Program-made: the position numbers and the translations under genes
In this document: positions 25,348-26,609 of the stretch, piece after piece
Layout of the letters: each line of letters starts with the position of its first letter
How positions within the stretch are numbered: position 1 is the stretch's first letter
DNA from: Escherichia coli
GTDB taxonomy: Bacteria > Pseudomonadota > Gammaproteobacteria > Enterobacterales > Enterobacteriaceae
Length of the DNA stretch: 64,000 bases
Strand: one strand, 5' to 3'
NCBI RefSeq assembly: GCF_024502345.1
Contig: NZ_JALDNN010000001.1
The notes under the pieces: generated by a model
Database searches by the model: none
The model's input: only the letters and a program-made list of their open reading frames with translations
Told to the model about the DNA's origin: nothing

Positions 25348-25677
25348 AATCAAATAGCCTACGCAATGTAGGCTTAATGATTCGTCTGAGTTATATTACG
25401 GGGCGTTTTTTAATGCCCCGCTTTACATATATTTGCATTAATAAAATAATTGTAATTATAAGGTTAAATATCGGTAATTTGTATTTAATAAATACGATCG
25501 ATATTGTTACTTTATTCGCCTGGTGCTCCCTTTTAATTAACTGTTTTAGCGGAGGATGCGGAAAAAATTCAACTCATTTGTTAATTTTTAAAATTTATTT
25601 TTATTTGTATAATCAAATATTTACTCCGTATTTGCATAAAAACCATGCGAGTTACGGGCCTATAAGCCAGGCGAGAT

Positions 25678-25691
25678 ATGATCTATATCAA
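25678..25691 (+). promoter_or_regulatory. Candidate FNR/CRP-family half-site dyad in the focA-pflB promoter region, followed by a TATAAT hexamer at 25701..25706
   Basis: aTGATctatATCAA resembles the FNR consensus TTGAT-N4-ATCAA. It lies in a roughly 400-bp AT-rich region upstream of focA, which is known to carry several anaerobic promoters. Confidence 0.4.
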
Positions 25692-25751
25692 TTTCTCATC
25701 TATAATGCTTTGTTAGTATCTCGTCGCCGACTTAATAAAGAGAGAGTTAGT

Positions 25752-26609
25752 GTGAAAGCTGACAACCCTTTTGATCTTTTACTTCCTGCTGCAATGGCCA
25801 AAGTGGCCGAAGAGGCGGGTGTCTATAAAGCAACGAAACATCCGCTTAAGACTTTCTATCTGGCGATTACCGCCGGTGTTTTCATCTCAATCGCATTCGT
25901 CTTCTATATCACAGCAACCACTGGCACAGGCACAATGCCCTTCGGCATGGCAAAACTGGTTGGCGGCATTTGCTTCTCTCTGGGGCTGATTCTTTGTGTT
26001 GTCTGCGGAGCCGATCTCTTTACTTCCACAGTGTTGATTGTTGTTGCTAAGGCGAGTGGGCGCATCACCTGGGGTCAGTTGGCTAAAAACTGGCTAAATG
26101 TCTATTTTGGCAACCTGGTCGGTGCACTGCTGTTTGTACTTTTAATGTGGCTTTCCGGCGAGTATATGACCGCAAATGGTCAATGGGGACTAAACGTCCT
26201 ACAAACCGCCGACCACAAAGTGCACCATACTTTTATTGAGGCCGTCTGCCTTGGTATCCTGGCAAACCTGATGGTATGTCTGGCAGTATGGATGAGTTAT
26301 TCTGGCCGCAGCCTGATGGACAAAGCGTTTATCATGGTGCTGCCGGTCGCGATGTTTGTTGCCAGCGGTTTTGAGCACAGTATCGCAAACATGTTTATGA
26401 TCCCGATGGGTATTGTAATCCGCGACTTCGCATCTCCGGAATTCTGGACCGCTGTCGGTTCTGCACCGGAAAATTTTTCTCACCTGACCGTGATGAACTT
26501 CATCACTGATAACCTGATTCCGGTTACGATCGGTAATATTATCGGCGGTGGTTTGTTGGTTGGGTTGACATACTGGGTCATTTACCTGCGTGAAAACGAT
26601 CACCATTAA
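25752..26609 (+). CDS. focA: Formate channel FocA (FNT family)
   Basis: The ORF-track frame 25377..26609 is open through the AT-rich promoter region. The real protein starts at the GTG at 25752 (V in ...RVSVKADNPFDLLLPAAMAK), giving 285 aa. Confidence 0.92.
   Translation: MKADNPFDLLLPAAMAKVAEEAGVYKATKHPLKTFYLAITAGVFISIAFVFYITATTGTGTMPFGMAKLVGGICFSLGLILCVVCGADLFTSTVLIVVAKASGRITWGQLAKNWLNVYFGNLVGALLFVLLMWLSGEYMTANGQWGLNVLQTADHKVHHTFIEAVCLGILANLMVCLAVWMSYSGRSLMDKAFIMVLPVAMFVASGFEHSIANMFMIPMGIVIRDFASPEFWTAVGSAPENFSHLTVMNFITDNLIPVTIGNIIGGGLLVGLTYWVIYLRENDHH

Follow-up and report, generated by a model that had tools for sequence, protein, structure and literature searches.

The window analyzed here is a 64,000-nt stretch of Escherichia coli DNA in which ycaO is followed by a 404-nt gap, a 410-aa open reading frame (ORF) with an ATG start (25377-26609, plus strand) and then pflB and pflA. 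The intergenic region begins at 25348 and the gap between ycaO and focA spans 25348-25751, so that the long ORF opens within the gap and ends with focA (Table 1). These 404 nt are 99.2-99.6% identical to K-12 and O157. A slightly longer segment, 25300-25800, was matched over at least 80% of its length in 5,421 of 5,426 complete E. coli genomes, the top identity being 99.6% (an O157:H7 strain; 99.2% for K-12), and RefSeq places only two genes, ycaO and focA, at the equivalent positions of K-12 and O157. Across 16 kb the closest complete genome is 99.5% identical, and the window would accordingly belong to an E. coli or Shigella-like lineage absent from the complete set. We conclude that 25348-25751 is almost certainly the non-coding ycaO-focA intergenic region of E. 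coli and the regulatory region of the focA-pflB operon. It is the same locus as the focA-pflB (pfl) promoter-regulatory region of K-12 studied by Sawers and co-workers, which is controlled by FNR, ArcA and IHF and has promoters P6, P6A and P7. Like that region, the window has binding sites for FNR and ArcA, the two sigma70 peaks, a GTG start and a weak Shine-Dalgarno sequence; it differs by four changes in 501 nt, none of them in a mapped protein-binding site. The control region of focA is already known in detail and the GTG start is not a new finding: Suppmann and Sawers reportedly established the GUG start of focA in 1994.

Table 1. Features of the ycaO-focA intergenic region and of focA, in window coordinates
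Feature	Position	Strand	Basis
ycaO stop codon, TAA	25345..25347	+	ORF 23554..25347; ycaO annotation in K-12 and O157
Hairpin just past ycaO, AGCCTAC-GCAAT-GTAGGCT	25356..25374	.	-11.4 kcal/mol, z = -3.9
Stretch open in the focA frame, very probably non-coding; 125 codons from ATG 25377	25377..25751	+	this lineage only
Probable distal -10 hexamer, TATATT	25392..25397	+	K-12 transcription start 8 nt downstream; sigma70 ChIP peak
GC-rich hairpin, GGGGCG-T6AA-TGCCCC	25400..25419	+	-15.8 kcal/mol, z = -4.6; compensatory stem changes
Equivalent of the distal K-12 focA transcription start, G25405	25405	+	30S-seq table, via alignment to K-12; inside the 5' arm of the hairpin
sigma70-like promoter match, TTTACA-17-AATAAT	25422..25450	+	sequence match; PMC3946193
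ArcA-P binding site, direct repeats 11 bp apart	25439..25492	+	Park et al. 2013 supplement; ChIP peak
TGG codon in the focA frame, TGA in K-12	25521..25523	+	alignment with K-12
Upstream 30S-binding site 'focA-213 uRBS', GGAGG at 25551-25555	25539..25570 (3' end approximate)	+	10.1101/2025.04.04.647229
TATAAT made by the rare allele T25608	25608..25613	+	most genera, like K-12 and O157, have GATAAT
FNR binding site ATGAT-CTAT-ATCAA, class II position for P6	25678..25691	.	Myers et al. 2013 motif and ChIP; conservation
TATAAT hexamer	25701..25706	+	invariant in 24 genera
Putative P6 -10 hexamer, TAGTAT	25714..25719	+	dyad geometry; invariant in 24 genera
Putative P6 transcription start	25725..25726	+	FNR coordinates and published -40.5; 5'UTR of ~26-27 nt
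Three overlapping weak GAG Shine-Dalgarno motifs, GAGAGAG	25740..25746	+	5 nt 5' of the start codon; invariant in 81 loci
GUGUGA: out-of-frame first GUG with immediate UGA, overlapping the real start codon	25750..25755	+	sequence; PMC9841429; preprint supplement
focA CDS, GTG start, 285 codons and stop	25752..26609	+	RefSeq CDS WP_000642546.1; PDB, Pfam, periodicity

The GTG at 25752-25754 shares the frame of ATG 25377 (25752 - 25377 = 375) and is followed by KADNPFDLL, the last 285 residues of the ORF opening with VKADNPFDLL. RefSeq focA (WP_000642546.1) encodes 285 aa and starts at the base equivalent to 25752. Residues 1-285 of PDB 3kcu correspond to ORF residues 126-410 with a sole mismatch at the initiator (V from GTG versus M), and the solved FocA structures (3kcu, 3q7k, 3kly and others) can be aligned with residues 126-410 of the ORF only, beginning at their own residue 1 (residue 3 in the Vibrio structure). 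The Form_Nir_trans domain (PF01226) covers ORF residues 140-401 (E = 5.8e-78), and the first 125 residues of the ORF gave no match in Pfam or the PDB. Both marks of the canonical 285-aa form of FocA, the PF01226 domain and collinearity with the solved chains from residue 1, are present.

To collect related loci, FocA was used as query in a single scan of the GTDB species representatives, which gave 80 Enterobacteriaceae loci (79 other species). Every locus that includes the start has GTG as start codon within the invariant string AAGAGAGAGTTAGTGTGAAAGCTGAC, and the GTG together with 26 nt of context is invariant across 81 related loci. Non-consensus bases make up a fraction of 0.032 at first, 0.015 at second and 0.334 at third codon positions in the opening 300 nt of the CDS; the 120 nt upstream of the GTG show 0.091, 0.070 and 0.054, without periodicity. 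Third-position variation sets in exactly at GTG 25752, and the last 80 nt before it (0.03) are better conserved than the coding third positions. Judged by sequence comparison, a conserved upstream block followed by periodicity from the GTG onward is the signature of regulatory DNA abutting a coding start.

Published ribosome data point to the same codon. The focA initiation region has been described as three overlapping GAG motifs and two overlapping GUG codons, the first followed by UGA; the 30S toeprint and binding at the focA start need initiator tRNA, and mutation of the Shine-Dalgarno sequence there (SD_TIR) abolishes both focA-lacZ expression and 30S binding (10.1101/2025.04.04.647229). 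In a separate study focA is found among genes with gtGTG starts (PMC9841429). The GUGUGA motif resembles the ambiguous GUGUG/AUGUG initiation sites of that study, but at focA the first GUG meets UGA at once and no alternative product is possible. As to initiation upstream of 25752, none is reported at focA in the ribosome-profiling papers searched, most of whose supplementary tables lay outside the search, and initiator-tRNA-dependent 30S binding is published for the annotated start only. The earlier note had set aside the ORF start and let FocA begin at GTG 25752, and this agrees with the RefSeq annotation, the species comparison, the solved structures and the 30S data. We put the probability that FocA starts at GTG 25752, and that the frame upstream of it is non-coding, at about 95%. 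The 285-aa FocA is very probably translated from this GTG via the weak GAGAGAG Shine-Dalgarno sequence.

The 410-aa frame and its ~375 bp of AT-rich open DNA upstream of the GTG lie where the earlier note had drawn them. These 375 nt (25377-25751) contain 30.7% G+C, with 200-nt windows down to 28%. The focA frame has no stop codon here and the other two forward frames have 13 and 13; dinucleotide-preserving shuffles contained 9.1 stops on average and none in 1 of 20,000 (P = 5e-5). The stop-free frame is a rare event and counts against a reading of pure accident. The same frame is mildly stop-depleted in other species too, with 6.4 stops per 375 nt versus 10.7 and 8.2 (78 species). The openness of the frame in the window comes in pieces: the proximal ~40 codons coincide with a conserved promoter block that many genera share, the stretch beyond them lacks stops only within E. 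coli, and the remainder hinges on two polymorphisms.

Four differences separate the window from K-12, namely C25383 (A in K-12), a T6 run at 25406-25411 (T7), G25523 (A) and T25608 (G); O157 shares T7 with K-12 and has G at 25608. The change of TGA to TGG at 25521-25523 removes a stop codon, and the loss of one T at 25406-25411 joins the frame to ATG 25377. In K-12 the TGA lies 77 codons upstream of focA and the mechanical ORF is 343 aa long, from a TTG. Counted to the nearest in-frame stop, 164 upstream codons are open in the window, 121 in O157, 76 in K-12 and 48 in the GTDB representative of E. coli. A 61-mer of the window with G25523 occurs in 495 of 5,424 complete E. coli genomes (at most 9%), a 71-mer with the T6 run in 6-7 of ~5,420 and a 63-mer with T25608 in 8 of ~5,420, and the rare alleles are found on different genomic backgrounds. 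We considered the T6 run as a possible sequencing error and rejected this, as six independent metagenome and read-archive assemblies carry the identical haplotype, matching the window over 25347-25760.

Taken at face value, the open frame would give this lineage an extended FocA isoform of up to 410 aa, initiated at ATG 25377 (by read-through from ycaO), at ATG 25413 (on the distal transcript) or at in-frame TTGs. The length of the stop-free run and its low shuffling probability speak for such a product. So does its recurrence: the exact 410-aa sequence is in a public protein collection from at least 24 independent contigs, which sets sequencing error aside, and gene callers emit it. Against this, none of the in-frame ATG, GTG and TTG codons is preceded by a Shine-Dalgarno sequence at a workable distance; ATG 25377 is upstream of the distal transcription start, with the hairpin at 25400-25419 between it and focA; and the extension is a conceptual translation of AT-rich DNA that matches no family or structure. 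Nor is the frame kept open among relatives, as one would ask of an extended proteoform. At least ~91% of E. coli genomes have it broken, and no other species has it intact. In those species the nearest upstream in-frame stop lies 4-86 codons away: 4 codons in Mangrovibacter, 5 in Kluyvera, 12 in Klebsiella, Raoultella and Phytobacter, and 32-44 in Salmonella, Citrobacter and Enterobacter, with a maximum of 86. Furthermore, the FNR dyad stands 74 nt from the GTG in 62 species but 75 nt from it in 12 and 76 nt in 5, so that 17 of the 79 carry a +1 or +2 nt indel that breaks the frame within 25 codons of the start. PGAP retains the 285-aa model in strains with single alleles, and the published 30S data discussed above favor the annotated start. 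We regard an extended isoform as extremely improbable. The same low credence goes to the idea that the stop loss is no accident and that ribosomes started upstream traverse the leader, to make extended FocA or to couple translation to the weak GUG; we hardly believe it.

We conclude that the open frame upstream of the GTG is, with little doubt, a non-coding by-product of lineage-specific polymorphisms. What is unusual about the locus is statistical only: AT-rich DNA with a frame free of stops. The evidence, comparative as well as experimental, consistently indicates that this frame goes untranslated. Automatic gene callers stretch FocA to 410 aa in this lineage, and a 398-aa over-extended FocA even represents a cluster in a large protein collection; the comparative data identify the 285-aa model as the right one. 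Beyond such annotation hygiene the result has little significance. The locus is among the classic anaerobic control regions of E. coli.

Turning to that control region, an FNR-like dyad had been proposed at 25678-25691, next to a TATAAT hexamer. The sequence there, ATGATCTATATCAA, matches TTGAT-N4-ATCAA with one mismatch (9 of 10 positions). One-mismatch matches number 4 in the window versus 2.7 expected, so the dyad alone is not significant; we consider it real because of its conservation and the ChIP data. Myers et al. 2013 list the motif in reverse complement (TTGATATAGATCAT) at 953,750 (U00096.2) as ChIP-bound, and the coordinate maps exactly (953,689 + 61 = 953,750). Of 81 loci, 78 retain both half-sites, ATGAT and ATCAA, at -74 to -76 from the GTG, around a variable 4-nt spacer (CTAT, CTAC, CCAT, CCAC, CGAT or CTGA). 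The proposed dyad therefore stands as a ChIP-bound motif with half-sites conserved across genera. A search for a second FNR site gave only three-mismatch matches (25428, 25479, 25578 and 25600), none convincingly conserved.

Two hexamers follow the dyad. From its center at 25684.5, TAGTAT begins 29.5 bp away and TATAAT 16.5 bp away. For focA-pflB, FNR has been placed at -40.5 (Myers et al. 2013). With FNR at -40.5/-41.5 the computed transcription start is 25725/25726, which is 6-7 nt past TAGTAT. TAGTAT fits an FNR-dependent -10 because a dyad spacing of 29.5 bp matches activation from -40.5/-41.5. By contrast, the other hexamer has the perfect consensus, is invariant in 24 genera and adjoins the dyad, and might on these grounds be taken for the -10 of the FNR-activated promoter; but 16.5 bp is too close, since it would put FNR near -28, and the published -40.5 requires the equally invariant TAGTAT at 25714-25719. 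We consider that assignment of TATAAT very unlikely. The TATAAT beside the dyad is thus present at 25701-25706, as the earlier note had it, but as an FNR-dependent -10 it gives way to TAGTAT.

We infer that TAGTAT is the -10 of the FNR-dependent promoter P6, and that TATAAT is probably the -10 of an overlapping, FNR-independent promoter. We take the latter to be P6A, the overlapping FNR-independent promoter that Kaiser and Sawers are said to have described in 1997. This analysis or cited data show the start codon, both protein-binding sites (FNR and ArcA), the distal transcription start and the 30S site; the pairing of hexamers with promoters is inferred, and it and the names P6, P6A and P7 are based on geometry and genome-scale data. 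The arrangement resembles the class II FNR promoters of narG, dmsA and yfiD in having a dyad with 9 of 10 matching positions centered 29.5 bp 5' of the -10. At focA the half-sites are conserved and the spacer is variable, the dyad is ChIP-bound, and its center lies near -41.5 of the putative start. Unlike those promoters, focA has an extra perfect -10 hexamer between the dyad and the FNR-dependent -10, and this second hexamer suggests overlapping promoters. The proximal promoter would then be an FNR-dependent class II promoter with its dyad at 25678-25691, its -10 TAGTAT at 25714-25719 and its start near 25725/25726, and the probable overlapping promoter would use TATAAT at 25701-25706.

A second promoter lies close to ycaO. 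A 30S-seq supplementary table gives the focA transcription start as 954,814 and the start codon as 954,466 (U00096.3), a 5'UTR of 348 nt. Published sigma70 ChIP peaks at 953,695 and 954,032 (U00096.2) map to ~25746 and ~25410 of the window, the peak at 954,032 being 5 bp from the distal start. The octamer TATATTAC (25392-25399) is found in 67 of the 69 sequences in which the element was found (68 related loci and the window), and TATATTAT in the other two. TATATT probably serves the distal focA promoter as its -10, as judged from its place before the mapped start. The distal promoter would thus consist of the -10 TATATT at 25392-25397 and a start at G25405, with a 348-nt leader that carries the ArcA-P site and the 30S-binding GGAGG. 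The description of the ~375 bp as promoter DNA holds in that this is a promoter region; it is not only promoter DNA, however, because ~348 of its 375 nt also form the leader of the distal transcript. When published coordinates were mapped, the FNR motif, the ArcA site and the distal start all fell in the focA upstream region. Together with sigma70 peaks at both promoters, the FNR and ArcA ChIP sites and the distal start bear out a multi-promoter anaerobic control region, as had been supposed.

Two hairpins lie in the ycaO-proximal part of the region. The first, at 25356-25374, has a terminator-like score on the minus strand; its stem is unconserved outside E. coli, with GTAGGC conserved. The second, GC-rich one (25400-25419) stands directly 3' of the octamer in 69 of 69 sequences. 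RNAalifold on an ungapped alignment of this hairpin recovered only part of the stem, the loop lengths being different, and each sequence was then folded singly. Stem sequences differ by genus and the pairing is kept (GGGGCGC/GCGCCC, GGGGCAAT/ATTGCCCC, GGGGCCAA/TTGGCCCC, GGAGCG/CGCTCC and others), a pattern of compensatory change; stems are 6-8 bp and fold at -8 to -16.5 kcal/mol. The loop holds a run of T6 here, against T7 in K-12 and O157. At least 5 T occur in the 9 nt past the stem in 65 of the 69 sequences; the window and K-12 have 4 (GCTTTACAT), the T-tail of E. coli being degenerate. These features suggest an intrinsic terminator, presumably that of ycaO. Rfam gave only chance-level matches (E >= 0.22, far under gathering scores). 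The position of the K-12 transcription start is the last G of the 5' arm, and transcripts from the distal start, being without that arm, would be unable to form the terminator. As a separate observation, the probable -10 of the distal promoter abuts this conserved, terminator-like hairpin.

Within the distal leader, Park et al. 2013 report a 54-nt ArcA site, TAATAAAATAATTGTAATTATAAGGTTAAATATCGGTAATTTGTATTTAATAAA, at 953,949-954,002 with a ChIP peak at 953,965, and this sequence is identical to 25439-25492 of the window. Its repeats are GTAATT at 25452, GTTAAA at 25463 and GTAATT at 25474, direct repeats at the 11-bp spacing of ArcA sites, and the GT, GTTA and GT of the three are invariant across 24 genera.

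Further downstream is the 30S-binding site focA-213 (Jagodnik et al. 2025 preprint), whose sequence GCGGAGGATGCGG recurs unchanged in the window, at -201 relative to the GTG, the likeness being one of sequence. About 40% of species have an exact GGAGG between -199 and -205, and others have G-rich variants. According to the authors, the 30S toeprint at focA-213 is independent of initiator tRNA, the site has no functional start codon, and mutation of the GGAGG (uSD) lowers focA-lacZ ~10-fold (10.1101/2025.04.04.647229). The same data might be read as a short upstream ORF that controls focA from the distal leader, for example the 11 codons from ATG 25556 to TAA 25591 past the GGAGG, which would then not be a start-codon-free standby site. 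The strong GGAGG with an ATG directly after it, the binding of 30S in vivo and in vitro and the effect of the motif mutation would all suit a short ORF. Nevertheless, a spacing of 0-1 nt between GGAGG and ATG is far from the optimum, and the tRNA-independent binding without a functional start codon speaks against initiation there. Moreover, 70S footprints in 5'UTRs amount to <0.5% in the 30S-seq preprint data set (10.1101/2025.04.04.647229), and a ribosome-profiling survey of small ORFs has no entry named for focA or ycaO. A regulatory short ORF is therefore very improbable in our view, and we prefer the standby site: the upstream GGAGG (25551-25555) in the distal leader probably boosts focA translation.

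Finally, two further hexamer matches lie in the leader. TTTACA-17-AATAAT figures in Shimada et al. (PMC3946193) as a 'constitutive promoter' of focA-pflB; this match is without conservation outside E. coli. Downstream of the GGAGG, the rare allele T25608 perfects a conserved -10-like hexamer. This allele and the setting of a promoter against a probable terminator are tentative side observations that may interest those who work on focA-pflB regulation.

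The sequence TATATTAC is near-invariant, the variant TATATTAT appearing in 2 of 69 sequences, and it is directly adjoined by a GC hairpin which, in 65 of 69 sequences, forms an intrinsic terminator, with compensatory changes in the stem and a T-run; in the E. coli version of this hairpin the T-tail is degenerate. The distal focA transcription start of K-12 (-348) corresponds to G25405, within the 5' arm of the hairpin; sigma70 gives a ChIP peak 5 bp from that start. This arrangement suggests that the distal focA promoter is nested against the ycaO terminator, and that transcripts from it are unable to form the terminator. 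In the hairpin loop, the T-run at 25406-25411 is T6 in the window versus T7 in K-12 and O157, and the exact 71-mer with T6 was found in 6-7 of 5,417 genomes. Since six independent assemblies carry T6, a read error could be ruled out and the allele is real. A further hairpin, 3' of ycaO, has its T-rich tail on the minus strand and was scored as a terminator there. Its stem is not kept in other genera, in which GTAGGC(T/G)TA is conserved. This hairpin also occupies the expected -35 position of the distal promoter (TAGGCT, 17 bp 5' of TATATT).

Features of the focA upstream region (window coordinates)
Feature	Position	Remark
Hairpin AGCCTAC-GCAAT-GTAGGCT, 3' of ycaO	25356-25374	terminator score on minus strand
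TATATTAC and adjoining GC hairpin	25392-25420	
SD-like GGAGG, then ATG 25556 and 11-codon ORF	25551-25591	
Conserved block GAAAAAATTCAAC...TAA.TTTTAAAATTTATTTTTAT	25565-25600	between ArcA site and proximal promoter
GUGUGA	25750-25755	overlaps focA start codon

Within the conserved block, TCAA, TTAAA and ATTT-T are invariant in 24 genera. Judged by sequence, the block resembles an IHF core (WATCAANNNNTTR) with an A-tract, and binding of IHF between the two focA promoters has been reported. Further downstream, the rare allele T25608 creates a perfect TATAAT 139-144 nt 5' of the focA GTG; K-12 and O157, with G at this position, have GATAAT, a hexamer that is widely conserved. Among 5,422 complete E. 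coli genomes, just 8 contain the exact 63-mer with T25608, and there it sits on other backgrounds. T25608 could be a promoter-up change; the mouse gut selects IS insertions upstream of focA that increase its anaerobic expression (PMC5094792).

For the window haplotype, gene callers output an over-extended FocA of 410 aa (25377-26609) on at least 24 contigs, and the 90%-identity cluster containing canonical FocA has as its representative a sequence of 398 aa that is likewise over-extended. Across 78 species (loci L003-L082), the 375 nt upstream of focA hold 6.4 stops in frame 0 versus 10.7 and 8.2 in the other frames, a shortage likely due to conserved sequence blocks. ATG 25556 stands directly 3' of the GGAGG, at an SD spacing of ~0 nt, and opens the ORF MRKKFNSFVNF (stop at 25589-91); according to a 30S-seq preprint (10.1101/2025.04.04.647229), there is no functional start codon at the upstream GGAGG. 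At the focA start itself, GUGUGA constitutes a minimal start-stop, invariant in 81 loci, whose first GUG is out of frame, two bases 5' of the real start, and is followed directly by UGA.
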